The notes: generated from the sequence alone by a model not told the origin. Shown: positions 21,176 through 38,345, counted from the stretch's first letter. The stretch is 64,000 nucleotides of DNA from Phenylobacterium sp. (GCF_004299445.1 NZ_SCTC01000057.1:28798-92797), one strand, 5' to 3'. Numbers and translations: made by a program.

Positions 21176-23041
21176 CTAGGGCAACAGCAGCGGCCGCACT
21201 GTGATGCGGAACGACACGCCGCGGTCCTGCAGATCGCGTTTGCCGGCCGAGGCGACGTCCTTCAGCGCCTTTGCATAGGTGATCCGGGCGGAAAGAGCGT
21301 CGGCGGGGGTCCAGGCCAGCGAACCGCCGACGCTGTAGATGCGATGCACCGGCTGCGGGTCCTCGACGTTCGTCATGTAGGCCGCGTCAGCGAAGCCGGA
21401 GACGGTGAAGGCGCCCCAGTCGAAAGTGCGCCCCGTCCCCTGGCGTCCGCCCAGGCGGATCGGCCGGGCTACCTCAACCGAACCTACCGCGCCCCTGTCA
21501 GCCAGCAGCAGGTTCTCGCGATAGCCGCGAACCGTGCTCTCGCCGCCCGCCGAGAAGCGCTCGCCCGAGTAGAGGACGCCATCGGCCCACTGGCCATAGA
21601 ACCGCGCGCGCAGCTCAAGGCCGTCGTCGGTCAGGCGCCGCGCGTAGTTCACCTGGGCCAGGACAGCGCGGAAGTCGCGCTCGGGCACGGGCAGGCCGGG
21701 GACGTCAGACTTGGTGCCGTCCAGCCCTTGCGTGCCGGTCACGGAGATGGCGAACACCTGGTCGACGTTGCGGACTACGTAGTCGCCCACGAAGCGCAGC
21801 GCCCGGTACTCGGTCTGGCCATCGACGGCGCCCGGCGCGAACGAGAACCGCTCGCCCAGGAGATAGGCGGTAGACTGCCGCCAGGCGAACATCATCCCCG
21901 CGCTCAGCGTGCGGGCCGAACGCCAGCGACCGGGCTGTGCGGCGGGCAGCAGCGGCGCATCCAGCAGCTTCCGGGTGACCCCTGCCTCGAACGCCATATC
22001 CTTGGCCTTGATGTCGAGCGGGGCCAGCAGGGCGTCGGTGACGGCGGCCTCGTTGATCGCGCCGCGCACCGAAATGGTGGTCTTGGGCGAGACGAACGGG
22101 AAAGCGTACGCCACCGTGGCGTCCTCGACGCCATCGGTCAGACCCGCCTCGACGCTCAGCCGGTCGCCCGCGCCGATCACGTTGCGCATGGATCCGCCGA
22201 CCGCCTTGCGTTCACCGCCCACCGAGGGCGAGCGGTTGTTGGCATAGCTGACATAGAGGTCGAAGCGGTCCTGCGGCAGGACCGCCAGCGCCAGGCTGGC
22301 CTCGCCCGGCCGCGAGCCTGGCCGCAGGTCGGCGTTGATCGTGCGGATCGCCGGGTCCTCGGCCAGCAGGCGGAAGTCACGCTCCAGCTCGACGGCGCTC
22401 AGCGGCCGGCGGGCTGCGGCGGGCATGCGATCTTCGATGTAGCGGGCGTCCAGGCCCTTGGCGCGGCCGCCGATCCACTCGACGCTCAGCGGCGGAAGGT
22501 CGCCGCCGGGCGACGCCAGCGCGCCGTAGATGATCTCCAGCTCCAGGACGCCCGGCGCGCTCGACGGCCGAACCACGACGCCCGAATTGATGTAGCCGGC
22601 GCCCAGGAAGGCGCGGTTGGCCGCCTGGACCACGGCCAGCGCCCGCGACACGCCGCCGCCGGGCAGGCCGTTGTTGGAGAACTGGCGGCGCAGCCAAGCT
22701 TCGTTCAGCGCCTCGCCCGGATTGTGGTCCAGCCGCAGGCCGCCGATGTCGGCCGGCGGGGTCCACTGCGGCGGCGGGATCGCGTCGCGGTGCGGCCCCG
22801 AGACCTTGATGCGCAGATCGGTGACGGGCGCGCCACCGGTCGGCGCGACGCCGTCCGGACCCGCGGCGGCTGGCGCGGGGGCAAGGCCGGGCGCGGGCTG
22901 CGCGTAGGAGGGCGTTGGCGGCGGCGTCGACTGGGGGCCTGTGCGCCCCTGCGACAGGTCGGCCGGCTGGGCCGCGGCGGGCGCGGCCGCGGCCAGCACG
23001 GCGAGCGTGGCGGCGGTCGACACTTCGGACCAGCGGCTCAA
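21176..23041 (-). CDS. TpsB (ShlB/FhaC/HecB) two-partner secretion transporter
   Basis: Signal peptide ending AAA-Q, Pro-rich linker, POTRA-like FLGAGYINSGVVV, YANNRSPSVG, VRGY loop (GGESTVRGYREN), C-terminal amphipathic strand. TTG start overlapping the tpsA stop is inferred; GTG 23023 is an alternative. Confidence 0.88.
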   Translation of the reverse strand: MSRWSEVSTAATLAVLAAAAPAAAQPADLSQGRTGPQSTPPPTPSYAQPAPGLAPAPAAAGPDGVAPTGGAPVTDLRIKVSGPHRDAIPPPQWTPPADIGGLRLDHNPGEALNEAWLRRQFSNNGLPGGGVSRALAVVQAANRAFLGAGYINSGVVVRPSSAPGVLELEIIYGALASPGGDLPPLSVEWIGGRAKGLDARYIEDRMPAAARRPLSAVELERDFRLLAEDPAIRTINADLRPGSRPGEASLALAVLPQDRFDLYVSYANNRSPSVGGERKAVGGSMRNVIGAGDRLSVEAGLTDGVEDATVAYAFPFVSPKTTISVRGAINEAAVTDALLAPLDIKAKDMAFEAGVTRKLLDAPLLPAAQPGRWRSARTLSAGMMFAWRQSTAYLLGERFSFAPGAVDGQTEYRALRFVGDYVVRNVDQVFAISVTGTQGLDGTKSDVPGLPVPERDFRAVLAQVNYARRLTDDGLELRARFYGQWADGVLYSGERFSAGGESTVRGYRENLLLADRGAVGSVEVARPIRLGGRQGTGRTFDWGAFTVSGFADAAYMTNVEDPQPVHRIYSVGGSLAWTPADALSARITYAKALKDVASAGKRDLQDRGVSFRITVRPLLLP

Positions 23042-26000
23042 CGGCAGCCTCCGACAGGCGCTTCGGCGGGCTGGATGGGCGCGATGGGCTGGGCCTCGCG
23101 GGCGTAGGGGCCGACGGGGCGTGTGATCAGCTGGCTGACCGCGCCGGTGGAGCGGGCCGCCGGGCACTGCCCGCGCAGCACCTTGGAGGCGTCGAGCACC
23201 GACAGATCGCGACTGACCGTGCCGCTGGAGACGTCATACAGCCCTGTCTGAAGCCGGAAGTCGCCATCGACGTCCACCACGTTCAGCCGGTCGGTGGAGT
23301 TGATGAAATACCGGCTCTGGATCTGCACGTTCGCCCCGCGCTGCTGACCGAGGGCGAGGATGCGGCCGCCGTTCGAGATGATCGCGAGGGGGTCGACAAT
23401 GGTGATCGCCCCGCCCGTGCCCGGTCCCGACGACGTCTGGATAACGCCGGGCGCTTCAGCCCCCTCCAGGACGAAGAGGCCGGGCCGCTTGATGCTGATG
23501 CCGATCGCGCCCGCAGCGCCTGCGAACGAGTTCGTGGATATGCGGCCGCCGTTCGAGATGGTGAGGTTGGCCGCGTCGATCAGGACAGTGCCCGCGTCAC
23601 CCCCCGGGCCCATGAGGCCGCCAAAGCCGGGATTGCCGCTCTGGTTCTCGCTGCCGATGATCGATCCCAGACCGTCCACGCGCAGTTCGCCCGTCGCGAT
23701 GGTGATCAGCCCTGCTGGGTTGGGGTTGGTGGAAAGCGTCGAGATCGCACCGCTGTTCACAACCCTCAGCGTGTCTGAGGTTAGGAACAGCGCGTTTGCC
23801 GAGCCGGTAGCGCCGACCTCGGCCGACGAGGCGATGCGGCCGCCATCGACCGTCAGGGTCTTGGCCTCGATAGACACCTCGCCGGCGTCTCCGGCCCCGG
23901 CCGTCGAGGTGCTTATGCTGCCGCCGTCGCCCACGGTCAGATTGTCAGCGACCAGAATGACCGAGCCTGCCCTGCCGTCCGCGTTACGGCCGATGGCTTC
24001 GGACAGGATATTGCCACCGCCCTCCAGCGTAATCGTCTTGGCCTCGATGTTGACCGAGCCGGCGTTCCCTTCCGACCGGGTCTGGGAGCGGATCTCGCCG
24101 AAGTTGCGCACGGCGAGGATGTCGGAGCTGATGACGAGGTCGCCACCCCTTCCCGAGGAGTAGGTGTCGGATGAGATGAACCCGCCATTGTCGACCAGGA
24201 TCGACTTGGACACGACCGACACCGTCCCAGCGTTGCCGCCCTGCAGTGCGTCTGAACTGATGTAAGTGGACTCGAACCCGCCGCCATCGACCACCAGCTT
24301 GTCGGCGGAGATGACCACGTCGCCAGCGTCGCCGAGGTCGTAGCTGTCAGACGCGATCTGACCGCCGCGTTCCAGCAACAGGTCCTTGGCGACGACAGCG
24401 ATATTGCCGGCATTGCCCGACCCCCTCGCGTCGGAGGTTATCCGGCCACCCCTTCGCAAGATCGCGGTGTTCGTCTGAATGAAGATGTCGCCTGCATTGC
24501 CGGAGCCGAACGTCTCGCCGGTGATGGCTGTGAAGTCCCGACCGGCGCCATCCAGAACGATCTCGTCGGCATCGATGAAGATGCCGCCCCCCTCGCCGCT
24601 GGTCTTGGAGCCCGACGAGATGATCGCGTCGTTCATGAAGAGCTTGCCGGTCGTGATCGACACCTGGCCGGCGTCGCCGGTTCCCCTGCTCGCCTGAGAG
24701 GTAATCGACGCCTCATCGACCAGCTCGATCCGGCCTGCCGCGATGGTGACCGAACCGGCGTCACCAACGTCCAGGGCGTCGGAGCGGATACCGGACGCGG
24801 TCTGCATCCGCAGCAGATCCTTCACCGTCACGATGACGTCGCCGCCCGCGCCCTCACTGGATGAGGTGGATGTGATGCTTCCCTTCGCGCTCATGAAGAG
24901 CGTATCGGCGGTCACAGTGACCAGACCGGCGTCGCCTGTGGCAAAGCCGAAGGTGTCGGACTCGACCCTCGCTCCGTCACCGGTGATTTCGACATCTCGA
25001 CCCTCGATGAGGACGAAGCCGCCATCGGCTGCGCCCGTCGCGTTCGAGCGCACGGCCGTGTTGAGCAGCACGAGATCGCCCGTAGACCGCAGCAGAATGG
25101 CGCCGGGCGTGGCCCCCACGCCGTCCGCCGCGTCGTTCACCACCTCGGAATCGACGAAGAGGAGATCGCCGGTCTCGACCAGGATGCTGCCCGGCGATCC
25201 ATCGTCGATCGCGCCGGCGATCAACTTAGCCGTGTCGAGGAAGATGGAGGGCGTCCGGATGACGATCGTCCCGGCGGCTTGGCCCGTAAAGCTCGCGACC
25301 TGGAAGCTGGTGGCGATCCCGTCGATCCGTTCGGAGGCCTGGACGAAGAGGTCGCCGCTGGAAAACAGCCCGCTCGTCTGGATGTCGAGGGCGCCGCCGT
25401 TCACCCGCAACGAACGGGCGCCCACGCTGCTGTCCACCGCCCCCAGCAGACTTGAAGAGATCTGCATGCGTCCGCGCCCGGGGGTCGCCAGAGGGTTGAC
25501 GATCCGCACGGTTGACCGACCATCGCCCACCGCGCTCAGGTCCAGGCCGCGGGTGAGGATCTCGCTGTCGTCGATCACGAGGTTGCCAGCCGTGAACGAA
25601 AGCGTGGTCTCGGGCGCAGCGAAGGCGTCGCCGACGCCTTGAATATCGGGCCCGACCCCCAGGGCCGTGATGTCGCCCTGCCCGCCCAGGAACCCCCAGG
25701 CTTCGGGCGCCGCCACCGACAGTGTGGATCCGTTTGGCGTGGCGATGGCGAAGCGGTCGCCGTTGGCGAAACGAAGCTCGCCGGCGGTCGAGAAGTGCGC
25801 GGCCGACGGGACGTTCACCTGGGCGCCGGGGCCGAAGACGATGCCCGCCGGGTTCACGAAGTAGAACGTCGCGTTGGGCAGGGCCGTGGAGTCGATCGTC
25901 CCGTTGATCCGCGAAGCCTGGCCGCCGGTGACCCGGTTGATGACGTTGTTGACCGCCGCCGCGTCGCCGCCGCCCACCCAGCGGGCCGTGTCGCCGGCGC

Positions 26001-26208
26001 CCAGGTCGAACTGGCTGAAGCTGTGGAACAGGTTGCCCCCGGCGCGCGTGCCGCCCGCGATCGTGTAGGTGACGCCCGCCTGCCCTACGGTCGTGCCCAA
26101 CGCGCGTCCGGCGGCGACGTCGGGGCTGATGACCGTCTGGCCGACGGCGGCCAGCGGCCAGCCCGCCAGAACCAGACCCATCGCCGCGACAGCCCCTCTC
26201 AACGCCAC
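23038..26208 (-). CDS. TpsA-like filamentous haemagglutinin-domain exoprotein
   Basis: Signal peptide followed by a TPS domain (NLFHSFSQF, NVINRVTGGQASRINGTI, FYFVNPAGIVFG) and about 20 beta-helix repeats. Confidence 0.88.
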   Translation of the reverse strand: MALRGAVAAMGLVLAGWPLAAVGQTVISPDVAAGRALGTTVGQAGVTYTIAGGTRAGGNLFHSFSQFDLGAGDTARWVGGGDAAAVNNVINRVTGGQASRINGTIDSTALPNATFYFVNPAGIVFGPGAQVNVPSAAHFSTAGELRFANGDRFAIATPNGSTLSVAAPEAWGFLGGQGDITALGVGPDIQGVGDAFAAPETTLSFTAGNLVIDDSEILTRGLDLSAVGDGRSTVRIVNPLATPGRGRMQISSSLLGAVDSSVGARSLRVNGGALDIQTSGLFSSGDLFVQASERIDGIATSFQVASFTGQAAGTIVIRTPSIFLDTAKLIAGAIDDGSPGSILVETGDLLFVDSEVVNDAADGVGATPGAILLRSTGDLVLLNTAVRSNATGAADGGFVLIEGRDVEITGDGARVESDTFGFATGDAGLVTVTADTLFMSAKGSITSTSSSEGAGGDVIVTVKDLLRMQTASGIRSDALDVGDAGSVTIAAGRIELVDEASITSQASRGTGDAGQVSITTGKLFMNDAIISSGSKTSGEGGGIFIDADEIVLDGAGRDFTAITGETFGSGNAGDIFIQTNTAILRRGGRITSDARGSGNAGNIAVVAKDLLLERGGQIASDSYDLGDAGDVVISADKLVVDGGGFESTYISSDALQGGNAGTVSVVSKSILVDNGGFISSDTYSSGRGGDLVISSDILAVRNFGEIRSQTRSEGNAGSVNIEAKTITLEGGGNILSEAIGRNADGRAGSVILVADNLTVGDGGSISTSTAGAGDAGEVSIEAKTLTVDGGRIASSAEVGATGSANALFLTSDTLRVVNSGAISTLSTNPNPAGLITIATGELRVDGLGSIIGSENQSGNPGFGGLMGPGGDAGTVLIDAANLTISNGGRISTNSFAGAAGAIGISIKRPGLFVLEGAEAPGVIQTSSGPGTGGAITIVDPLAIISNGGRILALGQQRGANVQIQSRYFINSTDRLNVVDVDGDFRLQTGLYDVSSGTVSRDLSVLDASKVLRGQCPAARSTGAVSQLITRPVGPYAREAQPIAPIQPAEAPVGGCR
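23320..25290 (-). repeat. imperfect ~28-33 aa beta-helix repeats in TpsA
   Basis: Recurrent G[ND]AGx[VI]x[IV]x(A/T)xxLx(L/V)xxGGxIxSx(T/A) units, about 20-23 by eye. Boundaries approximate. Confidence 0.8.
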
Positions 26209-28592
26209 GCTCCCAGCAGGGTGAAAGCCGCCCAGATGTTGGGGTTGGCCAGGTCTCCGCCCTGGGCGATCAAGGACAGCTGGGCCTCGCGCAGCGCCTC
26301 GGACTTGGAGCGGCCCTCACGGTAGCGGCCATAAAAGCTCTTCATCAGTTCGGCCGTGCCGGCGTCGCTGACCGGCCACAGCGAGGCGATGGCGCTTCTG
26401 GCGCCCGCCTGCACGGCCGCGCCGGCCAGGCCCATGCTGGCCTCGTCGTCCCCAACCGCCGTCTCGCAAGCGCTGAGGATCAGGAGGTCCAGTTCGCCGC
26501 CACGCGTGCGATTTGCGCTCAGGATCTGGCGTAGTTCCGACAGCAGGATCACCTCGCCGTTGGCGACGATGAACGCGCGGTCCGAGCGGCCGTTGAACGA
26601 GGCGTGGGTGGCCAGGTGCAGGACGTCGACCTGCTCGCGGGTCAGCGCGCCCACGAGATCGGCCTTGCTGAAGTTCTCGATCACCCACGAGCGCTGAATG
26701 CGCTTGCCGTCGGTGACCGCGGCCAGGCGCGCCTCGGCGCCGGTGCCGTCCAGCTTCTCGAAGCGGCCGGCCGGGACGCGGACCTCCATCTCCAGGGAGG
26801 CGGCGACCAGCTGCTGGTTCTGGGCCTGGATGCCGCCCGCTTGGGAGTAGGCCAGTGCGGGAGCGATCGTGACGCGCGTCTTCTCGACCAGGTAGCGGTT
26901 CTGGCTGTCGATCAGCACCGAGAACGGCAGGCTGCGCAGGGCCCCGTCGGGCACGACCGCCAACAGCGACCCAGGGGTCAGCTCGGCCTCGATCGGCTTG
27001 ATCAGGATGTCGTAGAGTTGCCGCGAGGCGGCGCGCCAGCTGTCGTCCTCGCCGCCGCTCAGCGAAACGACCGCCGCTTCCACAAGGCGCGCCACGTCCT
27101 GGCGATTGACGCTGCGATTGGGCGGCAGACGGCGAAACTCGGCCCCGGCCTGGCCGCCGGCCACATACAGCATCTCCAGCCGGTCGGGCAGCAGGATCGG
27201 ATAGAGCAACACCTCGCCTGGCCGCAGGGCCTCGGGCTTGAGTGGGTCGCGGGCGGGGATGCACTCGCTGCCGAAGACGCTCTGCAGCTCGGCCTGCCGA
27301 TAGGCCTCAAGGATCTGCTGCGCGCTCTTCACGCGGATCGCGGCGCCGGCGTCGGCGGCGCCGGCCAGCTGGACGTCGACCGCCCCCTGGAACACGCGGC
27401 GCATGTAGAGCGAGAACGCCGTCTCCTCGGTCAGCGGGTCGAACCTGGGCAGCAGCGGCCGGATCGCTTCCAGCGCCTCGTAGGCGGCCAGCACGTGGGC
27501 CTCGCGGTTGGCCGGGTCGAACTCGGAGAGCAGCAGGTGGAACTCAGGCAGGCGCGCCGGGAGGCTCCGCTGCGCCTCGAGCAGCAGCGCCTGGTCCATC
27601 ATCTGCCGCGCCGCATTGGCGTCGCCGTTCGCCGCGGCCATTCGCGCGTCGAGGGCGGTCGCGTAGGCCTGGGCCGCCGGGGCAGAGGACACGCGCATGG
27701 CGGCGGTGACCCCGCTCATGCCGTCCAGCGGACCGCCAGCGTCGAGATAGGCCGACAGCAGCCGGCCCAAAAGCTCGGCGCGGAGGGTCGGATCCTGGAT
27801 CTTGCGCGCGTCGGCCATGCCGTGGGCGGCCACGCCGACGGCTTCGCGCCGGAATTCGGCCGCCGCCGCGGCGTTCGTCTCGGCGACAGAGAGGCGCAGG
27901 CGAGCCAGCCGCAACTCGGCCAGCGCGGCCGTACGGTGGTCCTCGTTCGCGTGGGCCTGTTGCGCGGCGCAGCCCAGCGAGGCCACCGACAACGACAGGC
28001 TCGAGCTGACCACGAAGCTGGTGCGCATCAGCGCGACGCAGGGGTCGTCGCCCAGTTGCCCGACTTCGCGGGCGGCTTCCGACGGGCCGCGACTGGCCCG
28101 CCGGCCACCGCCACGGGTGCCCGTGGCCGGCGTCCCCGACAGCGAAACGAGACCCAGGCGATAGGCGGCCATGGAGGCGGGACCGCGGAGGTTCGCGCGG
28201 CTGGCCGTCTGGAACGCGCCCAGCAGGTAGGTCTGAGCCTGCAGCTGGCTGCCCTGGGCGCTGACCCGCATCAGTTCGCCGGCGGCCGAGCAGTACTCCG
28301 CGATCGCCAACGGCGACGGGCGTTCAGGACCCGACCCGCGCAGCTCCAGCGAAGGGGCGATCTCGGCGAACGGGTCTGCGGCCCCGCGCCGGGCCAGGCG
28401 GGACTCCGCCATTTCGGCGGCCTGTTGCAGCGCGCCGGCGCTGGGATAGGTCGGCAGGGTGACGTCGCCGGACGGGAGGCACAGGTCGTCGGTCAAGGCC
28501 GCGCGGGCCACGTCAGGCGACGCCGCCAGCACCCCAGACACCACCGCAGCCCCCGCCGCAGCCCACAGCCGTGTGACGCCCCCACGTCCCAT
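26199..28592 (-). CDS. CHAT domain (caspase/HetF-like) protease with N-terminal signal peptide and helical TPR-like region
   Basis: LAVVPDGALRSLPF, catalytic His in LHLATHA (26604-26606), Cys in LSACETA (26466-26468), SLWPVSD, HetF-type ending WAAFTLLGAWR. Confidence 0.92.
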   Translation of the reverse strand: MGRGGVTRLWAAAGAAVVSGVLAASPDVARAALTDDLCLPSGDVTLPTYPSAGALQQAAEMAESRLARRGAADPFAEIAPSLELRGSGPERPSPLAIAEYCSAAGELMRVSAQGSQLQAQTYLLGAFQTASRANLRGPASMAAYRLGLVSLSGTPATGTRGGGRRASRGPSEAAREVGQLGDDPCVALMRTSFVVSSSLSLSVASLGCAAQQAHANEDHRTAALAELRLARLRLSVAETNAAAAAEFRREAVGVAAHGMADARKIQDPTLRAELLGRLLSAYLDAGGPLDGMSGVTAAMRVSSAPAAQAYATALDARMAAANGDANAARQMMDQALLLEAQRSLPARLPEFHLLLSEFDPANREAHVLAAYEALEAIRPLLPRFDPLTEETAFSLYMRRVFQGAVDVQLAGAADAGAAIRVKSAQQILEAYRQAELQSVFGSECIPARDPLKPEALRPGEVLLYPILLPDRLEMLYVAGGQAGAEFRRLPPNRSVNRQDVARLVEAAVVSLSGGEDDSWRAASRQLYDILIKPIEAELTPGSLLAVVPDGALRSLPFSVLIDSQNRYLVEKTRVTIAPALAYSQAGGIQAQNQQLVAASLEMEVRVPAGRFEKLDGTGAEARLAAVTDGKRIQRSWVIENFSKADLVGALTREQVDVLHLATHASFNGRSDRAFIVANGEVILLSELRQILSANRTRGGELDLLILSACETAVGDDEASMGLAGAAVQAGARSAIASLWPVSDAGTAELMKSFYGRYREGRSKSEALREAQLSLIAQGGDLANPNIWAAFTLLGAWR

Positions 28593-28671
28593 CTCTACCC
28601 CCAGGACTTGGACCTACTGTGCCCGCGTGTTGGGGGTCGCTGTCAATGTATGGCAGCGCAAGACCCCGCCC

Positions 28672-29463
28672 TCAGGCCATGCCACGCGTGAGATCGCGAC
28701 GGCTGGCGTCGCCCAGCTGGGATCCGCCGTCGCAGTCCAAGATCGTGCCCGTGACGTAGCTCGCGGAAGAGCTGCAGAGGAAGACGGCGGCCTCGGCCAC
28801 CTCGTCGATACGGCCCCAGCGCTTGAGCGGAATGCGTTCCTGGTGGCCGCCGTCGGCCGACGCGCCGGGCGCGAGCCGGCTCATGCCCTCCGTGCCGGCG
28901 ATCGGGCCCGGGGAGATGCCGTTCACGCGCACCTCGGGGCCCCACTCCATGGCCAGCACCCGGATAACCTGGTTGATGCCGGCCTTGGCGGCGCAGGCGT
29001 GGATCTGCAGCGGCGAGGCGTTCACGGCCTGGCCCGCGGTGATGGCGATCAGCGATGCGCCGGGCCGCGCCAACAGGTCGTAGCAGCCCCGGAACACGTT
29101 GAAGGTGCCGTTGAGGTCGATGTCGACGACGGTGCGGAAGGCGTTAGCCGACATGCCCAGCGCCGGGGCCAGGAAGTTGCCGGCCGCGCCCGAGATGACG
29201 ATGTCGAGCGCGCCCATCTCGCCCGCGGCATGCTCCATGGCGCCGCGGATCGCGGCGTAGTCGCGAACGTCGGCGGTGAGACCCAGCGCGCCCTGCCCGA
29301 TCTCGGCGGCGGCGTTCGCGGCCTTCTCCGGGTTGCGACCCAGCACGGCCACCTTGGCCCCCAGTTCGGCGAACCGCTTGGCGATGCCGAGATTGATGCC
29401 GCTGGTGCCGCCGGCCACAAACGCCGTCTTGCCGACCAGCAGGTTGTCCTTGAATGCGCTCAC
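28672..29463 (-). CDS. SDR, 2,4-dienoyl-CoA reductase-like
   Basis: [30 protein letters not shown], HxxxK (HACAAK) in place of Yxxx[12 protein letters not shown]. Confidence 0.85.
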
Positions 29464-29609: not shown

Positions 29610-32600
29610 ATGTCCATGCTCAAGCGTGTCCTGATCGCCAACCGCGGCGAGATCGCCATTCGGATCGCCCGCGCCGCGGCCGCACTTGGGATCGAGAGCG
29701 TCGCCGTCTACGCCCCCGCCGACGTGCGGGGACTGCACACGAGGTCCGCGACGCGGGCTATGGCGATCGGCGCCGGTGCGGGCGATGCGTTGGCGCCCTA
29801 CCTGGATATCGACGCCATGATTGCGGCCGCCCAGGCGGCGGGATGCGACAGCGTACATCCAGGCTATGGCTTCCTGTCGGAGAACGCGGCCTTCGCGCGG
29901 CGCTGTCTGGCCGAGGGACTGACCTTCGTGGGCCCGCCTCCCGCGGCGCTGGAACTGTTCGGCGACAAGGTGAAGGCGCGCACACTGGCCGCCTCGCTCG
30001 GCGTGCCGACGGTTGCCGGGAGCGCAGGGACGCTGTCCACGGTCCAGGCGGCGGCCGAGGCGGCGGAGGCCGTGGGCTATCCGGTGATGCTGAAGGCTGC
30101 GGCCGGCGGCGGCGGGCGGGGCATGCGCCGGGTGGACGGGCCGGCTGAGCTGGAGGCCGCGCTCGCCCGCTGCCGCAGCGAAGCCGAGGCCGCGTTCGGC
30201 GATGGATCGGTGTTCCTGGAGAAGCTCATCGAGCGGCCGCGGCACATCGAGGTGCAGGTGCTGGCCGACGCCAAGGGCGACATCGTCCACCTGTGGGAGC
30301 GTGACTGTTCGGTCCAGCTGCGGAACCAGAAGGTCGTGGAAGTCGCTCCGGCGGCGGGGTTGCCCCCCGAACTCAGGACGGCGATCCTGGCCGACGCGGT
30401 TCGGCTGGCGAAGGCCGGCGGATGTCTGAACGCGGGGACAGTTGAGTTCCTGGTCTCGCCGGAGACCGGGCGGCACGTCTTCATCGAGTGCAACCCGCGC
30501 ATCCAGGTGGAGCACACGGTCACCGAGGAGGTGACGGGCGTCGACCTCGTCGAGGCTCAGTTCCGGATCGCGGCGGGCGCGACACTGGGAGACCTGGGAC
30601 TGGACGCGCCGCCACCGGCGCGCGGGTTCGCCGTGCAGGCGCGGGTGACCGCCACGGGGCCAGGAACGCTGGACGGCTACAAGGAGCCGACCGGGCCGGG
30701 CGTGCGCGTGGACAGCTGCGGCTACCCCGGGCTCACGCCGCCGCCTCAGTTCGACCCGATGTTCGCCAAGGTGATCGCGCGGGCGGGGACGCTGGCGGGC
30801 GCTGTCGAGCGGTGCGAGCGCGCGCTCAGTGAATTCCACATCGCCGGCCTGCCAACCAACCTGGCGCAGTTGCGAGCGATCCTGGCGGAGCCCTCGGTGG
30901 CGGCCGGCGACGCTCGTACGACCTTGCTGGCGGAGCGCCCCGGGCTGGGTTCCGCCACTCCCCCTCCCTCCCCGTCCCTGTCCCTGCTGGGGGCCCCTCG
31001 GTCCGGCCCGGGAGACGCACCGGCCCCGCCCGCGCTGGCGCTGGAAGCCGGCGAGGAGGGTATCGAGAGCCCGATGGGCGGATCGGTGATCGAGATCTCG
31101 GTCGCCGTCGGTGCGAACGTCGCGGCGGGGGACACCCTGATGGTGGTCAGCGCCATGAAGATGGAGACATCCGTCACCGCCCCATGCGCGGGCGTGGTGA
31201 CGCGGCTGGCGACACTGGAGGCGGGATCGGCCGTCGCGGCCGGCCAGATCGTCGCCGCCCTCGCCCCCACGAAAGGCGCCGGGACGTCGGCGCCGCGCAC
31301 CTATGGCGAGGACAGCTGGGCGCCGACGGTGCGCCAGGTGGAGGCGCTCCAGGCGATCGCCCACGCACGCTTCGCCCCCGACACCCAGGACCCGGGTGTG
31401 ATCCGGCAGCGCAACCGCCAGAAACTGTCCTGCCGGGAGCGGATCGATCTCCTCCTCGACGATGGCAGCTTCCGCGAAGTGGGCAGCCTGGCCGGCTTTG
31501 CGAGCTATGACGCGGACGGCGGCATCGCCGATTTCACCCCCGCAAACCACGTGGGCGGCTGGGGCGCGGTGGAGGGCCGGCGCACCATCGTCTGCGCCGA
31601 CGATTTCACATCGCGCGGCGGCCATTCGGACGGGGCGATCGGGCAGAAGAGCCGCTACCTGGACGAGCTTTCGATCACGCAGCGCTGTCCCTCGGTCCGC
31701 CTGCTGGACGGCTCCTCGGGCGGCGGCAGCGTGGCCACGATGGTGCCGAAGTCCGAGACAGGCGGGAGCGCCGCAAAGGAGAGTTCCGGCGCGATCACCG
31801 CAGGGCGGCCCCGAGTGTCCGGCGGCGGCGGCTCGTTCCTCCCAGGGCACCTGGGCAGCGAGATGTACGCGCAGCAGTTGGCCACTGTGCCGGTGGTGAA
31901 CCTGTTGCTGGGCAGCGTGGTGGGGATCGGCGCAGCCAAAGCCGTGCTGGGGCACTTCTCGGTTATGGTGCGCGATATCGCTCAGCTGTTCGTTGCAGGC
32001 CCCCCGGTCGTGGCCCACGCCATGGGCTATGAGATCACCAAGGAAGACCTGGGCGACTGGCGGGTTCACGCCCGCAATGGGTCCGTGGACAACCTGGCCG
32101 AGTCCGAGGCGGACGCGGTGGCGCAGGCCCGCCGTTTCCTCAGCTATCTGCCACCCAGCGTCTACGACGCCCCGCCCCGGAGGCCCTGCGATGACTCGCC
32201 CGATCGGCGCGAGGAAGAACTGTTCACGATCGTGCCACGCAAACGCACGACCACGTTCGACATGCGCCGCGCGATCCGGCTGATGGCGGACAAGGGCAGC
32301 TTCTTCGAGATCGGGGCGCTGTGGGGCTCGGACCAGATCGTGGGCTTCGCACGCTTCAACGGCGTGCCCGTCGGCGTGCTGGCCTCGGACAGCCGGCACG
32401 AGAACGGGGGGGCGCTGACCGCCGACGGCTGCGACAAGCTCAAGCGCCACCTGGATCTCTGCGACCTGTTCCACCTTCCGGTCGTGAACCTGGTGGACAA
32501 TCCGGGCTTCGCGGTCGGCCGCGAGCACGAGATCGCCGGCACGATCCGCAAGGGGGGCGAGTGGATGATCGCCTTCGCCCAGGTCAGCGTGCCGATCTTC

Positions 32601-32966
32601 ACGGTGATTATGCGCCGCAGCTTCGGCGTGGCGGGCAACAACTATGCGACGCCCAAGGCCGGCGCCGGCGCGCGGGTCGTCTGGCCGGCGGCCGACGTGG
32701 GCGGAATCCCGCCGGAGGGCGGCATCGAGGCGGCCTACAAGCGCCAGTTGGCCGAGGCGGCCGATCCCGTGGCGCTGCGCGCCGAGATCGAGGCGCGGAT
32801 TGAAAGCGTGCGTGGACCGCTGGGGCCGCTGAATCGCTTCCAGATGGAGGAGATGATCGACCCGCGCGACACCCGCGCCTGGATCTGCGACTGGGTCGAG
32901 AACGCCTGGCGCGTGGTCACTCAGCCCGCGCGCCTCGGGCCGCGACCACTCGGATTCCGGCCCTAG
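29610..32966 (+). CDS. single-chain BC-BCCP-CT acyl-CoA carboxylase (LCC-like architecture)
   Basis: BC motifs [35 protein letters not shown]; biotinylation site AMKM; C-terminal carboxyltransferase repeats ([18 protein letters not shown]). Confidence 0.9.
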
Positions 32967-33267
32967 CTCGAGCAGCGTCGGCGCCTCGCCTGGAGGTCTC
33001 GCCTCGGCGGGATGCCCGAGCGGCCCAGTACACGCCACGCGACGTCCACCTCGACCGATGGACGTAGCCGCATTGTCGCGGTAGCGTCCGACGCAGCAAT
33101 CGGGGCGGCGAACACCGCCTCTATTGGACGGGGCCAGAGGACGGGGCTGGGGTGCAAGGTCAGAGTCGCGATACCCGCCCTGTGAATCTTGGCGGATGCA
33201 CGCTGTCTTCAAGACTGCGTCTTTGCCGACGTTTCGAGGAAGCGTCTTTCACCTTCAAGGGCGCGGC

Positions 33268-35028
33268 GTGACGATCCCTCAGTCTCCGCCGACCCCTGAG
33301 CACCGCGCCGCCTCGGTACGCGCCGCGCTGGCGCGAGGCGACCTGTTGGGTGCGTACGACGAAGTCGTGCGCCGTGGCAGCACCGATCACCACGGCCTGA
33401 ACTATCTGGAGGTCCTGACCCTCGCGCGGTTGGGCGACACCGAGCGCGCGCTGCGTCTGTACGATGACTATGGCCTGGCCGAGGTGGACGACGTGGACTC
33501 GCTGTCGCTGAAGGCGCGGCTCCTCAAGGATCTCGCGTTCCAGGCGGACGGCGAGCCGAACCACGAAAAGCTGATGGCCGCCTGCGAGCTGTATCAGGCC
33601 GTGCACGTGCGCACCCGCTCCAGCTACCCCGCGATCAACGCGGCCAGCCTGGCCCTTATCGCGGGGCAGACCGAGCTGGCGCGCAAGCTGGCCGATGAGG
33701 TGGCGCGGGAAACCCCGCCCGAGCGGCGGCGAGGCTACTTCTCGCTGGCGACCCTGGCCGAGGCGCTGGTCGTACTGGGCGACGTGGCGGGCGCCCGGGA
33801 CGCCCTGAGCCGGGCGCTCGAGGCCGAGGACGCCGATGTGGGCGCCCGATCCACCACCGTGCTGCAGCTACAACGTCTCGTGGCGGCAAAGAGCGTGGCT
33901 CCCGGGATGGAAAGTCTGCTGGAACTGGTCCAGCCGCCGCGGGTGGCGATGTTCTGCGGCAACATCTTCGTCGGCGGCGAGGAACTCGAGGCCAAGCTGG
34001 CGGCAGCGATGTCGGCTCTGATCGCTCGCGAGAACGTCGGCTTCGCCTATGGCGCGCTGGCCGCCGGCAGCGACATCGTGATCGCCGAACAGCTGATCGC
34101 GCGCGGGGCCGAGTTGCACGTCGTGCTACCCTTCGCCGAGGTCGACTTTCTGGAGCAATCGGTGGCCCCGGCGGGCGAGAGCTGGGTCGCCCGCTACCAT
34201 GCCTGCAAGGCCGCCGCGACCGAAGTCACCTATGCCAGCAACATGACCTACATGGGCGGGATGGAGCAGTTCGCCTACGGGTCCAAAGTGACCATGGGCA
34301 TGGCCCGACTGCGCGCCCGTCAGCTGCACGCCGAAGCGATCCAGCTGGTCATCGTCGAGGACCGCGGGGACGGTACGCTCTCGGGCTCGGACGTCACCGC
34401 CTGGCGCTCGACAGGCGGGCGCGCCGAGGTGGTGGCGGCGCCGCCCTTGACCCGACCGGTGATGCCCCCGCCGCCGCCCAAGCTGAACGTGGACCGGGGC
34501 GACTACGGCCTGATGTTCACCGACTATCCCGGCTTCTCGAAACTGGACGAGCGCGTCCTACCCATCTTCTGGGAGGAGGTAATGGTCCGGTCGGCCGGGA
34601 TCCTCGAGGCCTACGGCAAGGTGATCCGCCAGGGCAACACCTGGGGCGATGCGATCTTCGCCGTCTTCGGCGATGCGCCAACGGCGGCGGCGGCGGCGCT
34701 CGACCTCTGCGAAGGCCTGGCCAAGGTGGACTGCAAGCGCCTTGGCGTGCGCGACGGCACGGCGATGCGGATCGCCCTGCACTATGGCTCGACCTACTCG
34801 GGCTACGACCCCGTGACCAAGCGGATGAACTACTACGGCAGCGAGGTCTCGAAGGCGGCGCGGATCGAGCCGGTGACGCCGTCAGGCAGCGTGTACGTGA
34901 CGGAGCCGTTCGCTGCGGTGCTCGAGATGCAGAACGACCACCCGTTTGTCTGCAACTACGTCGGCAAGATCGCCCTGCCCAAGAACTACGGAACCTTCCC
35001 GCTGTATCGCCTCAGCCGCGCGGGCTAA
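33268..35028 (+). CDS. TPR-S (DUF4071-like) - SLOG - class III nucleotide cyclase fusion
   Basis: N-terminal helical region SLKARLLKD / YPAINAASL / YFSLATLAEA; SLOG-like core AYGALAAGSDIVIAE...LHVVLPF; cyclase MFTDYPGFS, NTWGDAIF, RIALHYG, AARIEP. Start set at GTG 33268. Confidence 0.8.
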   Translation: MTIPQSPPTPEHRAASVRAALARGDLLGAYDEVVRRGSTDHHGLNYLEVLTLARLGDTERALRLYDDYGLAEVDDVDSLSLKARLLKDLAFQADGEPNHEKLMAACELYQAVHVRTRSSYPAINAASLALIAGQTELARKLADEVARETPPERRRGYFSLATLAEALVVLGDVAGARDALSRALEAEDADVGARSTTVLQLQRLVAAKSVAPGMESLLELVQPPRVAMFCGNIFVGGEELEAKLAAAMSALIARENVGFAYGALAAGSDIVIAEQLIARGAELHVVLPFAEVDFLEQSVAPAGESWVARYHACKAAATEVTYASNMTYMGGMEQFAYGSKVTMGMARLRARQLHAEAIQLVIVEDRGDGTLSGSDVTAWRSTGGRAEVVAAPPLTRPVMPPPPPKLNVDRGDYGLMFTDYPGFSKLDERVLPIFWEEVMVRSAGILEAYGKVIRQGNTWGDAIFAVFGDAPTAAAAALDLCEGLAKVDCKRLGVRDGTAMRIALHYGSTYSGYDPVTKRMNYYGSEVSKAARIEPVTPSGSVYVTEPFAAVLEMQNDHPFVCNYVGKIALPKNYGTFPLYRLSRAG

Positions 35029-35035
35029 GGGCCCG

Positions 35036-36997
35036 TCAGCTCTTCGCGGCCACGCGGCTTGGCGCCCGTTCTGAGATGGTCTTGCACTCCCCGGCGAGCT
35101 GGCGGGTGAAGCTGGCCTCGGCGCCCAGGGTCTCGGTGAGAATGCGGACCCCCGCTGCACAGTCGCTGCGGGCCTCGGCGAAGCGGCCTGCTTTCGCCAG
35201 GATCTTAGCCCGATTGACCAGCAGGTCGCCGTGGTTCGGGTGGATCTTGCCATAGCTGGCGTCGTAATTGCGCTTGGCGTCGGCCAGCGTGGCCAGGGCG
35301 GCGTCAGGGTCTCCGCGCGCGGATTCGATCATCGCCAGATAGACTTCCGCAATGCCGATCAGGAAGTGAGGCCCCCCGAACGCCTGGCGATAGATCGCGA
35401 CCGCCTCGCGCAGCGAACGCTCGGCCTCACCCAGCTGACCCAGCCCCTGAAGGATCTGCCCCTGCATGGACAGCGTGTTCGCCAGGATCGGGTTGTCGGC
35501 GTCGAGCACCTTGCGCTGGATCCGTAGCGCCTCGGCGATCTGCTGGCGGGCCTTCGGAAGTTGCCCGGCGTTGAACGAGTTCTGGGCCAGCGCGAACCAC
35601 GCCTTGCCCGACTGCAGATGGCTCGGTCCCAATTCCTTCTGGAACAGGACCAGAGACTCCTGCAGCGAGGCCTCCGCTGCGGCGAACTGACCGTCATCCG
35701 ACAGCAGCAGGCCGCGATTGGAAAGGACTGACGCCATGAAGTTGGGCGGGGCGTCCTCGGCGCGTCGGGCGTAGTAGACCGCCAGATCCAGGGCCGCCAG
35801 GCCGTCCTTAACTCGCGACGCGTTCACGAGGATGCGTCCTCGGGCGAGTGACGCCTTGGCGCGCAGGAACGGCTGTGCCTCCGGATCGGGGCCTATCACC
35901 CGTTCGGCGTGTCTCACCGTCGCGAGCGACTTCTCGATCTGCCCCTGGAGACCATATGTCTGCGCCAGCACGAGCAGGGCGTCGACCCCGTCGGGCCCGG
36001 CCTTCTCGACCACCGGCATGGCCTTCTCGAGCGACGCCTGCGCCTCGCTGAGCAGGCCCAGGTTGTTGTACGCCCGCCCGAGGGTGGCCAGCAGACGCGC
36101 TTCGATGGTCGGCTGCCCGGCCAGTTCGCGTTGCGCGCGCTCGGCGCTGCGGCTGAGGATTGTCAGGGCGGTGATCGTCCGCGGATTGTCGGTGGCCGGA
36201 TTCGAGAGCTCGAACGTGCCGACCAGATAGTCCGAAGCCGCCCGTGCCGCGGCCGCCTCATGTTCGGCGATCGCCCGCTGTGCGTTCGCTTCAATTCGGA
36301 GAGAGTTGGCGTAGAAGGCCAGTCCGCCGGTGACCACCATGCCCATGACCGCGCCGACGGCTACCGCCGTGGCCTGTGCGATGCGTCGTTGGGTCTCGCG
36401 CTGGACGAGGTCGTCGAGCTTGAGGCCGGTAAGGCCCGCGATCAGTTTCTGCGTGGCGAGCCGCGGCCCATCGGCCTCGCGACGATAGTCCGCCGCGATG
36501 GGCTCGGCCGGAACATCGGAGAGTTCGCCGCTCGGCCCGATCCGGAATCGCATCGCCTCGGGGAAGCACTCGCGATGGTCGCGGCCGGGAATCTCGCTGG
36601 CATGCGGCTCGCCATCGACCACCAGGGCCAGAACGCGGCCGTCGCCGTGGAACGCCTTGAACTGCTTGATCTCCTCGTTGACCCAGCGCGACCCCGCCGC
36701 GGCCGGAGAACAGATCACCAACAGGAACATCGACTGGCGAAGCGCAGCGGTCAGCTCGGCCGAGAGGTCGCCTGAGGCCGGAAGTTCCTCGCGGTCGCGG
36801 AAAATGGGACGCAGGCGCGACGGCGTGCGGCCCAACGCAGTGACTTTGCCGACCAGCTTCGAAGGAATGCGATAGGACTCGATCGCCCTATGCAGCCGTT
36901 GGGCGACCTCCTTGTCCCGATGGGAATAGCTGATGAACGCCCGGTAGGCGTACGCGGTCTCGGTACGTGCCTGGGTGTCCGTCTCAGCCGGCGTCAT
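35036..36997 (-). CDS. TIR domain - TM - TPR receptor-like protein
   Basis: TIR motifs AFISYSHRD, IFRDREEL, LLVICSP, WVNEEI (catalytic-position Glu at 36671-36673); one TM (AVAVGAVMGMVVTGGLAFYA); about 7 long TPRs. Confidence 0.88.
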   Translation of the reverse strand: MTPAETDTQARTETAYAYRAFISYSHRDKEVAQRLHRAIESYRIPSKLVGKVTALGRTPSRLRPIFRDREELPASGDLSAELTAALRQSMFLLVICSPAAAGSRWVNEEIKQFKAFHGDGRVLALVVDGEPHASEIPGRDHRECFPEAMRFRIGPSGELSDVPAEPIAADYRREADGPRLATQKLIAGLTGLKLDDLVQRETQRRIAQATAVAVGAVMGMVVTGGLAFYANSLRIEANAQRAIAEHEAAAARAASDYLVGTFELSNPATDNPRTITALTILSRSAERAQRELAGQPTIEARLLATLGRAYNNLGLLSEAQASLEKAMPVVEKAGPDGVDALLVLAQTYGLQGQIEKSLATVRHAERVIGPDPEAQPFLRAKASLARGRILVNASRVKDGLAALDLAVYYARRAEDAPPNFMASVLSNRGLLLSDDGQFAAAEASLQESLVLFQKELGPSHLQSGKAWFALAQNSFNAGQLPKARQQIAEALRIQRKVLDADNPILANTLSMQGQILQGLGQLGEAERSLREAVAIYRQAFGGPHFLIGIAEVYLAMIESARGDPDAALATLADAKRNYDASYGKIHPNHGDLLVNRAKILAKAGRFAEARSDCAAGVRILTETLGAEASFTRQLAGECKTISERAPSRVAAKS

Positions 36998-37000
36998 GCC

Positions 37001-38074
37001 TTAGCTGTACGACAGCGCCCCCCGACGCCGCAACGCCGCACCGAGCAGGCCGAAGCCCATAATCATCATCGCCCAGGTCGCGGGCTCGGGCACCGCGCCG
37101 CCGCCATTATTGAACTCGAACGGCGTGATCTCCCGCGGATCGAAGACGATGCCCGTGATCGGGTTTTCGCCGCCGCCGAAGCTGGACATCTGCATGCTGC
37201 CGAGCAGCCCCGTGCGCGCCTCGTCGAAGTCGGCCCCCCCGCCGCGGCCGATGGGGTCGCCGAAGCCGGAGTAGGCGACCAGGCAGGTGATCGAGGTGAT
37301 GCACTCGGCCCGGGTGCGGCTGGTCACGCTGGTGCGATACTGGATCGTCTGGCTCTGACCGCTTTCGATAAGGGCGTTCAGCGGCAGGACGATGTGGGTC
37401 GAATCCCACGCGAAGGCCCAAGCGAACGGGTTGTCGTAAGCGGTGACGAAGCCGTCCAGCGCGCCGGGCTGGCTGATCCAGAAATTCCGCTGCAGGCCGT
37501 CGTAATAGTCGTACGACAGGGTCATGTAGCCGCTCAGCGAATAGAGCGTGACGTCGTTGCTGACGACGCTGAATTCGAAGTCAGAGTAGGCCAGCAGGCC
37601 GCTTTCGTCCGTAGAAACCAGGTCCTCGAAAGTCAGGCCCGACGAGGTCTGACCAAAGCCCGTGAAGATATTGTTGTCGGTGGCCGCGCCATCCCGATCC
37701 TGCAGGTAGAAGCCCATGCCCGCCGGGATGATCGTCGAGCCGAAGGTGTCGATGTCGAGCAGGTCCTCGCTGCCATTGAAGATCGTAATGTCGACGCCCG
37801 AGTACGACGTGGACTGGGCGAAGCCGCCCGAGACCGCCACGCCGCTCTCGAACGCGATCTTCTGCGAGGTGATGGTGTATAGGGCCTCGAGGCTTCCGCC
37901 TTCGCCGTTGTTGTCCCACAGATACCGGCCAGGCTTGTTCGCAGGGATCGTCAGGGTGTCCTGGGTGATCGTACCGCTGGCGAGGCCCGTGGCGTCCAAA
38001 TTCAAGGATTGCGCACTCGCGCCGCCAGCGTAAAGCAGGGCAGACGCGACCGCCGTGATCATCAGGGCTCGCAT
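37001..38074 (-). CDS. PEP-CTERM (PEPxxWA type) sorted surface protein
   Basis: Signal peptide ending ASA-Q and C-terminal VPEPATWAMMIMGFGLLGAALRRR. GGAG RBS 7 nt before ATG 38074. Confidence 0.9.
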   Translation of the reverse strand: MRALMITAVASALLYAGGASAQSLNLDATGLASGTITQDTLTIPANKPGRYLWDNNGEGGSLEALYTITSQKIAFESGVAVSGGFAQSTSYSGVDITIFNGSEDLLDIDTFGSTIIPAGMGFYLQDRDGAATDNNIFTGFGQTSSGLTFEDLVSTDESGLLAYSDFEFSVVSNDVTLYSLSGYMTLSYDYYDGLQRNFWISQPGALDGFVTAYDNPFAWAFAWDSTHIVLPLNALIESGQSQTIQYRTSVTSRTRAECITSITCLVAYSGFGDPIGRGGGADFDEARTGLLGSMQMSSFGGGENPITGIVFDPREITPFEFNNGGGAVPEPATWAMMIMGFGLLGAALRRRGALSYS

Positions 38075-38345
38075 TGACTTTCTCCAGCTTTCAGCAAGGC
38101 GGCGCACAACGCACGCCGGACCAACCCCATCTTATAATCGACCTTAACAGAAGCCGTTGAACCCGCGATGGCGTTCTTGCGTGAGTTGAAAAACACTCGC
38201 CTTGTTCGCGCGCCTATCCAGCATTTCTGGGTTACCGGAGCCCAGCGTTCGCTCAAAGTGGGCGCCCTTCCTGACAGGCTCGCATGCCGCGTTATGTGAA
38301 TCGGCCTACCCTGGTCTGAGTTGCATCCAGAGGAACCTCGCGCGC

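Follow-up and report, generated by a model that had tools for sequence, protein, structure and literature searches.

A conserved gene triad linking a predicted exported TPR-CHAT protease with two-partner secretion proteins in Phenylobacterium and related bacteria

A 64,000-nucleotide stretch of DNA from Phenylobacterium sp. (GCF_004299445.1 NZ_SCTC01000057.1:28798-92797; hereafter the window) carries three successive open reading frames on the minus strand that fill positions 28592 to 21176 and that have coding-type G+C contents at the third codon position (GC3; 0.86–0.90). The first is a CHAT gene (26199..28592; 797 amino acids) whose product is predicted to be an exported TPR-CHAT protease and matches the Pfam CHAT family with an E value of 5e-57. 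It is followed by tpsA (23038..26202; 1054 amino acids from a TTG at 26202) and tpsB (21176..23041; 621 amino acids; Pfam ShlB and Omp85 matches), the two genes of a two-partner secretion (TPS) pair. Judged from sequence, the triad constitutes a type Vb (two-partner) secretion module with three components, all of which possess predicted Sec signal peptides. The gene order and common strand proposed in the original prediction, which a model had made from the sequence without knowledge of its origin, were borne out by the reading frames, GC3 values and Pfam matches. Successive genes overlap by 4 nucleotides in a TTGA start/stop sequence on the minus strand, at 26199..26202 between CHAT and TpsA and at 23038..23041 between TpsA and TpsB, and the sequence at both junctions is CGTTGAG. 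A 10-nucleotide overlap was suggested originally for the first junction. This overlap is present when tpsA is read from a GTG at 26208, but that start is probably wrong: an ATG, GTG or TTG codon overlaps the TGA stop codon by 4 nucleotides at the CHAT-TpsA junction in 74 of 78 related loci, the remaining four possessing TGATG or TAATG. Because the 4-nucleotide overlap is retained so consistently, the TpsA start was assigned to the TTG at 26202. Moreover, every CHAT protein of the related loci terminates with ...GAWR, and C hardly ever occupies the third position of this final Arg codon, which indicates selection for an overlapping start. The TTG at 23041 proposed as the TpsB start similarly is sound on comparative grounds as the same 4-nucleotide arrangement recurs in 49 of 63 related loci. 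Translational coupling of CHAT, TpsA and TpsB can be inferred from these start/stop overlaps.

Conservation of the triad was examined in one genome per GTDB species, among which 545 stretches encode a CHAT relative. Synteny was scored in the best 80 of the 545, comprising Caulobacterales and Sphingomonadales together with one Acidovorax record. Failure of the three genes to be conserved together had been named beforehand as an observation that would weigh against a functional connection; instead, TpsA and TpsB genes lie directly downstream of CHAT in every one of these best 80 loci in which the contig is long enough. The order is CHAT-tpsB-tpsA in two loci (L047 and L049), and a third (L014) has a pair of tpsA genes between CHAT and tpsB. 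When TpsB homologues with 51–57% identity were used as the point of departure, the same triad was recovered in three of three cases. Certain genomes possess two triads, each with a separate CHAT gene (L032/L077, L052/L078 and L021/L083). Flanking genes vary between genera and even within Phenylobacterium, and no conserved fourth gene was found in the alphaproteobacterial loci inspected. The closest genome is the Phenylobacterium metagenome-assembled genome NI281, with 91% protein identity, and this match together with the names of homologues assigns the region to Phenylobacterium (Caulobacterales). Cultivable carriers of the module include Phenylobacterium kunshanense BUT-10, Sphingomonas parva and Sphingosinicella sp. 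BN140058. The sole non-alphaproteobacterial record among the best 80 is a contig of Acidovorax delafieldii CCH4-A2 (L041). Its triad is similar to that of Sphingomonas ursincola (L042) in tblastn identities and ranges, and the TpsA C-terminal tails shown are near-identical, a pattern that suggests a contaminating contig or a recent transfer.

The CHAT protein comprises three parts, all encoded on the minus strand: a Sec-type signal peptide (amino acids 1–31, MGRGGVTRLWAAAGAAVVSGVLAASPDVARA then AL at the putative cleavage site; 28500..28592), an all-helical TPR-like N-terminal region delineated by invariant columns, AlphaFold2 (AF2) modeling and Foldseek (amino acids 32–520; 27033..28499), and the caspase-fold CHAT domain (PF12770; amino acids 521–794; 26211..27032). 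A homology search yielded 206 CHAT homologues. In a profile search that covered 1.84 billion representatives, full-length matches formed ~40 clusters, and the C-terminal 500–600 residues alone matched a very large CHAT superfamily with 5,646 proteins at E <= 1e-30. One metagenomic protein (P0272; 1782 amino acids) that appeared to be a CHAT-TpsA fusion was rejected: a frameshift near the CHAT C-terminus leads into the overlapping tpsA frame, and the fusion probably is an assembly or gene-calling artefact. In an alignment of 22 homologues with 100–48% identity, the N-terminus is variable in sequence and has basic residues in its n-region, a hydrophobic core and an AxA site, directly after which AL.D.LC is conserved. 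The hydropathy of the signal peptide is 1.98. The His/Cys dyad, described as intact in the original prediction, is formed by His663 (HLATHA; codon 26604–26606) and Cys709 (LSACET; codon 26466–26468), neither of which varies among the 22 homologues, whose identities extend down to 48%. Also invariant in this set are five cysteines of the helical region (C38, C101, C185, C208 and C444). The AF2 model of the protein (predicted local distance difference test score [pLDDT] of 80) consists of helices across residues 52–440 and then an alpha/beta domain in which His663 and Cys709 each come after a beta-strand; helices 744–758, 763–777 and 779–787 come after the catalytic cysteine. No relative was detected in a PDB sequence search with the CHAT profile. 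Foldseek comparison of the full-length model with the PDB identified the TPR-CHAT protein Csx29 (E value 7e-14), the periplasmic TPR-CHAT domain of DdvA, and separase, and the N-terminal helical region aligned with the TPR parts of Csx29, DdvA and LGN. With its predicted signal peptide, the CHAT protein probably is a soluble TPR-CHAT protease that resides in the periplasm. DdvA has been described as the sole structurally characterized periplasmic TPR-CHAT protein and is missing a three-helix element that completes the TPR-CHAT active site (PMC11506125). A periplasmic TPR-CHAT protein with an incomplete active site might be taken as precedent for a catalytically silent CHAT that acts only as a scaffold. 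That explanation, or one in which the three genes are co-located yet functionally independent, is very improbable for the triad: the dyad is invariant across the alignment, synteny is kept across orders despite changing flanks, the start/stop overlap is kept in 74 of 78 loci, and paralogous triads each retain their own CHAT gene.

TpsA begins with a hydrophobic N-terminus corresponding to a signal peptide, which is followed by a TPS secretion domain (amino acids 35–229; 25516..26100, minus strand; NPAGI motif at amino acid 117), G(D/N)AG beta-helix repeats of ~28 residues, and a C-terminal section of 260 amino acids. The TPS domain was matched by PF05860 (E value 2e-28) and TIGR01901 (E value 6e-16). 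Orthologues vary in length from ~780 to 2650 amino acids, and the conserved portions of the protein are the TPS domain and the C-terminal 260 residues. The passenger core (23610..25665, minus strand) is hypervariable and is without a nucleotide match in the closest relative (L006): the sequences that flank this interval are 88–91% identical to L006 while the passenger DNA is unalignable. This pattern suggests rapid diversification or recombination of surface-exposed repeats. A PDB sequence search with TpsA found no relative. When the C-terminal 200 amino acids were used as query, a protein search retrieved only short metagenomic fragments that lack gene context, and tblastn against annotated plasmids produced no match. 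A contact-dependent inhibition (CDI; CdiBAI) identity for the locus was considered and rejected. No toxin or pretoxin Pfam match and no immunity gene were found; there is no room for the latter because the TpsB start overlaps the TpsA stop. Contrary to the CDI pattern, the C-terminal 260 amino acids of TpsA are conserved and not variable.

The C-terminal anchor module of TpsA (23041..23193, minus strand) consists of a motif around Cys1013, a variable Pro/Ala-rich spacer, and Cys1053, which is located one residue before the end of the protein. C1013 and C1053 are the only cysteines in TpsA. Exactly two cysteines, spaced 32–54 residues apart, occur within the last 120 amino acids in all 69 complete orthologues, and the last is 0–3 residues from the C-terminus in 67 of the 69. 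The motif at C1013 is DASxVLRGQCxxxRxxGxxSQLxxRPxGPY. The corresponding orthologue consensus, D(-9)ASxVLxGQCxxxRxxGxxSQL..GPY, is nearly invariant, with D(-9) and the cysteine each present in 70/70 sequences and R+4 in 68/70, and the remainder of the loop is variable and Pro/Ala-rich. A disulfide loop at the C-terminus of HMW1 and HxuA remains periplasmic and locks the TpsA end in TpsB (PMC5422565), and formation of such a loop by a C-terminal cysteine pair that locks the TpsA end at TpsB is attributed to Buscher 2006 as that study is summarized in PMC5422565. By analogy, the TpsA cysteine pair here probably forms a periplasmic disulfide-closed loop that would tether the protein as an anchor of the HMW1/HxuA kind.

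A precedent for proteolytic release of a TpsA protein is provided by periplasmic LapG, which cuts CdrA's C-terminal tail and thereby frees CdrA from the surface (PMC5422565, PMC4694147); maturation protease genes appear to be absent from TPS operons according to a 2017 review (PMC5422565). It is proposed tentatively, at somewhat below even confidence and by analogy with such systems, that the anchored tail of TpsA is the target of processing or release by the periplasmic CHAT protease, which would be under the control of its TPR region. In this scheme, TpsA would be exported via TpsB as a beta-helical fibre of the cell surface whose passenger evolves quickly, and the cysteine loop of TpsA would form a disulfide-closed plug on the periplasmic side of TpsB so that the fibre is tethered to the cell. 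The TPR-CHAT protease (clan CD, caspase-fold) would be synthesized in step with its partners through the TTGA coupling, would be kept inactive by the TPR region until a cue is received, and then would recognize the conserved tail (DASxVLxGQCxxxRxxGxxSQL..GPY) that its cognate TpsA has in the periplasm and cut it, with the result that the fibre is matured or released. The original prediction that the protease acts on TpsA thus is supported in part by the conserved CHAT signal peptide and the conserved two-cysteine loop of TpsA, with the proteolysis itself putative. The anchor module also bears on an alternative in which the CHAT enzyme operates as a transpeptidase that cuts a C-terminal signal from TpsA and joins the end so created to a component of the envelope, thereby fixing the fibre covalently. 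Certain clan-CD enzymes, including PorU of the type IX system, the glycosylphosphatidylinositol transamidase GPI8 and legumain-type ligases, have cut-and-ligate roles. The CHAT protein belongs to the same clan and is predicted to be periplasmic, and the conserved C-terminal motif of TpsA is followed by a variable, disposable tail as would suit this arrangement. Nevertheless, covalent fixation is highly improbable: no ligating CHAT-family enzyme is known, no genes for synthesis of an acceptor are linked to the module, and the two-cysteine loop already suffices as a non-covalent anchor, for which there is precedent (PMC5422565).

TpsB was matched by the Pfam families ShlB (PF03865; E value 1.5e-16) and Omp85 (PF01103). 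The protein is laid out as a signal peptide (amino acids 1–24), a Pro-rich segment (25–65), two POTRA-like units (~66–256), and a 16-strand barrel, with the VRGY sequence of the L6 motif at amino acids 504–507. The AF2 model (pLDDT of 81) shows two beta-alpha-alpha-beta-beta units and the barrel, and the best Foldseek matches were CdiB (6wim; E value 5e-24) and FhaC (4qky; TM score of 0.67). On the basis of the model, TpsB is a FhaC/CdiB-like outer-membrane transporter. The Pro-rich segment (22847–22969, minus strand) has pLDDT values <50 and an invariant RTGP motif; no plug helix like H1 of FhaC and CdiB was predicted between the signal peptide and POTRA1, where the model has this low pLDDT. 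The RTGP-containing segment is a possible docking site in a quality-control arrangement in which the TPR region is a dedicated chaperone of the periplasm by which unfolded TpsA is delivered to the POTRA units of TpsB, and CHAT degrades TpsA that is stalled or mis-targeted. Extended peptides are ligands of TPR domains, the CHAT gene opens the operon and is tightly coupled, and periplasmic DegP has both a helper and a degradative role toward FhaB and HMW1 (PMC5422565). However, such a helper is not needed by classical TPS systems, and the arrangement explains neither the strict conservation of the TpsA C-terminal cysteine-loop motif nor the frequent absence of an adjacent TpsB gene from the cyanobacterial CHAT-TpsA pairs described below. 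A chaperone role of this type is judged decidedly improbable.

The original prediction referred to similar CHAT/haemagglutinin/ShlB neighborhoods in filamentous cyanobacteria, and these proved to be real, with CHAT and TpsA genes adjacent in Nostoc, Anabaena and Planktothrix. Ten distant CHAT matches on annotated plasmids were inspected, of which seven are cyanobacterial. A gene for a protein with a filamentous hemagglutinin N-terminal domain adjoins CHAT in five of the ten (Nostoc punctiforme, N. flagelliforme, Planktothrix agardhii, Anabaena cylindrica and Caballeronia), and the P. agardhii locus also carries ShlB. In Nostoc PCC 7120, a hemagglutinin-domain gene is located 7 kb from CHAT. 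Genes for DUF928 and CHASE2 proteins adjoin CHAT in four of the seven cyanobacterial records, one of which, Gloeothece, has no TpsA gene within 9 kb; in N. punctiforme only DUF928 is near CHAT, and neither DUF928 nor CHASE2 is near it in PCC 7120 and Pseudanabaena. Neither a TpsA gene nor a DUF928/CHASE2 partner was found near CHAT in three of the ten plasmid records. The CHASE2, DUF928 and CHAT set recurs in L088, L090, L097 and L098, accompanied by DUF1822 in L088 and L098 and by TpsA in L088, L090 and L098. DUF928 was nearly absent from the full-text literature that was searched. On the plasmid of Caballeronia sp. M1242 (L091, 6666–16884), genes for CHAT-TPR, ShlB and a TpsA of 2008 amino acids are situated within a type VI secretion system (T6SS) cluster, with tssJ on one side and tssA on the other. 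The TpsA proteins of N. punctiforme and Planktothrix have just two cysteines each, and that of N. flagelliforme has two cysteines in its C-terminal part and one in the signal-peptide region. In these cyanobacterial proteins, a motif of similar type (LVDASNQISNAC...GRSGLP) contains one of the C-terminal cysteines, and the other is 1–7 residues from the end. The CHAT partners of the three proteins start with hydrophobic segments that resemble export signals. As it recurs in cyanobacteria, the pairing of a predicted exported CHAT protein with a cysteine-loop TpsA therefore is ancient or widely exchanged.

These distant loci are pertinent to an alternative in which the logic of tail processing is reversed, that is, the tail gates the protease and the protease cuts other targets. 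TpsA would be an extracellular sensor or receptor whose periplasmic cysteine-loop tail holds the TPR-CHAT protein inactive, as securin does separase, and loss or pulling of the fibre, or the binding of a ligand or phage, would free the protease to cut envelope or inner-membrane targets in trans-envelope signaling or suicide. TPR-CHAT enzymes typically are ligand-gated switches, as in Craspase and separase and as has been proposed for DdvA; 1:1 translational coupling suggests a complex; and hypervariability of the passenger among genomes that are near-identical resembles that of surface receptors under conflict. The cyanobacterial versions are linked with CHASE2 sensor proteins and DUF928, and the Caballeronia version resides inside a T6SS cluster. 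Conversely, no conserved fourth gene that might be a target accompanies the alphaproteobacterial loci, PADLOC returned no known defense system and only a weak generic CHAT match (BovA; E value 1e-5), and a TpsA-gated protease is without experimental precedent. Overall, this sensor arrangement is unlikely, albeit credible. A more elaborate version, in which the disulfide-looped tail of the hypervariable fibre is threaded through TpsB and restrains the periplasmic caspase-like protease as a trans-envelope switch, such that a phage, competitor or surface that disturbs the fibre looses the protease on envelope targets, is distinctly unlikely. If true, however, it would be a bacterial counterpart of the death-receptor-to-caspase pathway that in cyanobacteria also is wired to CHASE2 sensors.

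Processing of the TpsA tail by the CHAT protease, the preferred explanation, itself has several points against it. Cleavage, the disulfide and surface tethering are each inferred from sequence, and the cleavage site in the tail is putative, with R1017 and R1028 as candidate P1 residues on the basis of motif conservation. Stoichiometric coupled expression would suit a stable complex more than an enzyme that diffuses freely, and a coupled enzyme that was ungated would release all TpsA; no gating partner such as LapD is conserved among the neighboring genes inspected. The free active-site cysteine must withstand the oxidizing periplasm, although LapG does so. The presence of DUF928 and CHASE2 in the cyanobacterial module hints at signaling in place of simple release. 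Furthermore, RNA support for expression is weak and consists of short metatranscriptome contigs only: near-identical short RNA contigs (X25 and X26) from a biofilm metatranscriptome and one RNA-seq run cover all three genes, and none crosses a gene junction in the runs examined, so that co-transcription is putative. Taken together, the chaperone/quality-control, transpeptidase and inert-scaffold explanations are less likely than either tail processing or signaling.

The usual teaching is that two-partner secretion is a minimal pathway of two proteins. The present module, whose operon also encodes a caspase-fold protease that is predicted to be exported, is represented in at least 545 species-representative genomes and defines a widespread three-partner TPS subtype with related forms in cyanobacteria and Betaproteobacteria. 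To our knowledge, few CHAT proteases have known targets, and TpsA is a candidate natural substrate for a bacterial CHAT protease. The module would be a tractable model for adhesin tethering and release in Alphaproteobacteria of the environment and of biofilms, among them Phenylobacterium and Sphingomonas from drinking water, and if the switch model is true, caspase-like signaling would be extended to the bacterial periplasm. No link between CHAT and two-partner secretion was found in a search of full-text literature, from whose scope most subscription journals are excluded; three papers on other subjects mentioned both terms once in passing. The triad unites known type Vb secretion with the known CHAT family in a combination that is widespread, strongly conserved and apparently uncharacterized.

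The region upstream of the CHAT gene contains a perfect TTGACA hexamer (28641..28646, minus strand) within the 79-bp gap between the stop codon of a short-chain dehydrogenase (SDR) gene at 28672 and the CHAT ATG at 28592. The SDR gene is on the same strand. The hexamer highlighted in the original prediction is therefore present and upstream of CHAT, but a sigma-70 promoter scan gave no site and no -10 element was found at the proper spacing; because a matching -10 is missing, the hexamer is a candidate -35 only. TTGACA is scarce in the window, occurring four times compared to an expectation of 10 ± 3.4. A terminator scan found none on the operon strand. A gene for a LacI-family regulator (21146–20133, minus strand) starts 27 bp past the tpsB stop codon with no terminator-like site between the two, and transcriptional read-through from tpsB into this gene is possible. 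The LacI and SDR genes were rejected as parts of the module as they are common only to the closest relatives (L006 and L007).

A foreign origin for tpsA had been hinted at by G+C contents of 63% in tpsA and 73% in the CHAT gene. These values are local extremes: the contents for whole genes are 72.0% for CHAT, 67.6% for TpsA and 72.5% for TpsB, compared to 68.7% for the window, and the corresponding GC3 values are 0.90, 0.86 and 0.90. The gap between CHAT and TpsA sits mainly at codon position 1 (0.74 vs. 0.63), which is due to the G/S/T/I/D/N-rich beta-helix composition of TpsA. Other local genes have comparably low contents, including those for a TonB receptor (64.2%) and LacI (67.8%). Foreign origin on the basis of G+C content was rejected since the gap is modest and follows amino acid composition, and native genes are equally low.

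Every sampled word of the region was present in one groundwater metagenome run and most also were present in drinking-water metagenomes. Elsewhere in the window, positions 29610–32966 (plus strand) encode a single polypeptide of 1118 amino acids in which biotin carboxylase, biotinyl carrier and carboxyltransferase are fused. This gene is precisely missing in L006, where 33005 joins 29549, and is present in L007. Positions 33085–35028 (plus strand) encode a fusion of a TPR-S sensor domain with a class III adenylate/guanylate cyclase, and a TIR domain of ThsB-like type fused to TPR repeats, with a weak PADLOC SAVED_TIR match, is encoded at 35036–37000 (minus strand). These convergent genes could be a small signaling or defense pair. 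A gene for a PEP-CTERM protein (37001–38131, minus strand) is next to the TIR-TPR gene.

Among characterized systems, LapG and CdrA-CdrB of Pseudomonas aeruginosa offer a parallel in that a TpsA adhesin is held by a periplasmic C-terminal tail and is the substrate of a periplasmic cysteine protease, as is proposed here. However, LapG is a transglutaminase-like (BTLCP) enzyme that has its gene elsewhere and is subject to gating by LapD and cyclic di-GMP, whereas the protease of the triad is of TPR-CHAT type (clan CD), is specified by the first gene of the TPS operon, and has no LapD-like gene among its neighbors. The likeness may be functional only, with the triad protease not a member of a LapG-type release system. 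The C-terminal cysteine pair of TpsA is shared with HMW1-HMW1B and HxuA-HxuB of Haemophilus influenzae, but there is no sequence similarity (no PDB match) and the loop of 32–54 residues has its own conserved motif; HMW1 has a cytoplasmic glycosyltransferase as its third partner, and the triad has a protease. The CHAT protein has the TPR plus caspase-fold architecture and the His-Cys dyad of Csx29 (Craspase), separase and DdvA, and the case of DdvA indicates that a TPR-CHAT module of this kind is able to function in the periplasm. Csx29 and separase are proteins of the cytoplasm for which RNA or securin is the gate, and DdvA is a membrane-anchored anti-sigma factor. In contrast to these proteins, with which it is 11–16% identical, the CHAT protein is predicted to be free and exported, and has a private N-terminal region with five invariant cysteines.

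The cyanobacterial TpsA-CHAT-DUF928-CHASE2 clusters on Nostoc, Anabaena and Planktothrix plasmids apparently are unstudied and only annotated. Like the triad, they specify a putatively exported CHAT protein, which ends in ...W(A/G)x(F/Y)xLxGxW(L/R), beside a TpsA with G.AG beta-helix repeats and two cysteines in its C-terminal part, the last of which is 1–7 residues from the end. Unlike the triad, the CHAT domain is ~30–36% identical, the cysteine loop is longer at ~100 amino acids, DUF928, CHASE2 and DUF1822 are added, the gene order varies, and TpsB often is not adjacent. Finally, FhaB/FhaC/SphB1 of Bordetella exemplifies maturation of a TpsA by dedicated proteolysis during secretion; SphB1 is a subtilisin autotransporter of the cell surface and has its gene outside the FhaB/FhaC locus, unlike the operon-encoded CHAT protein of Phenylobacterium.

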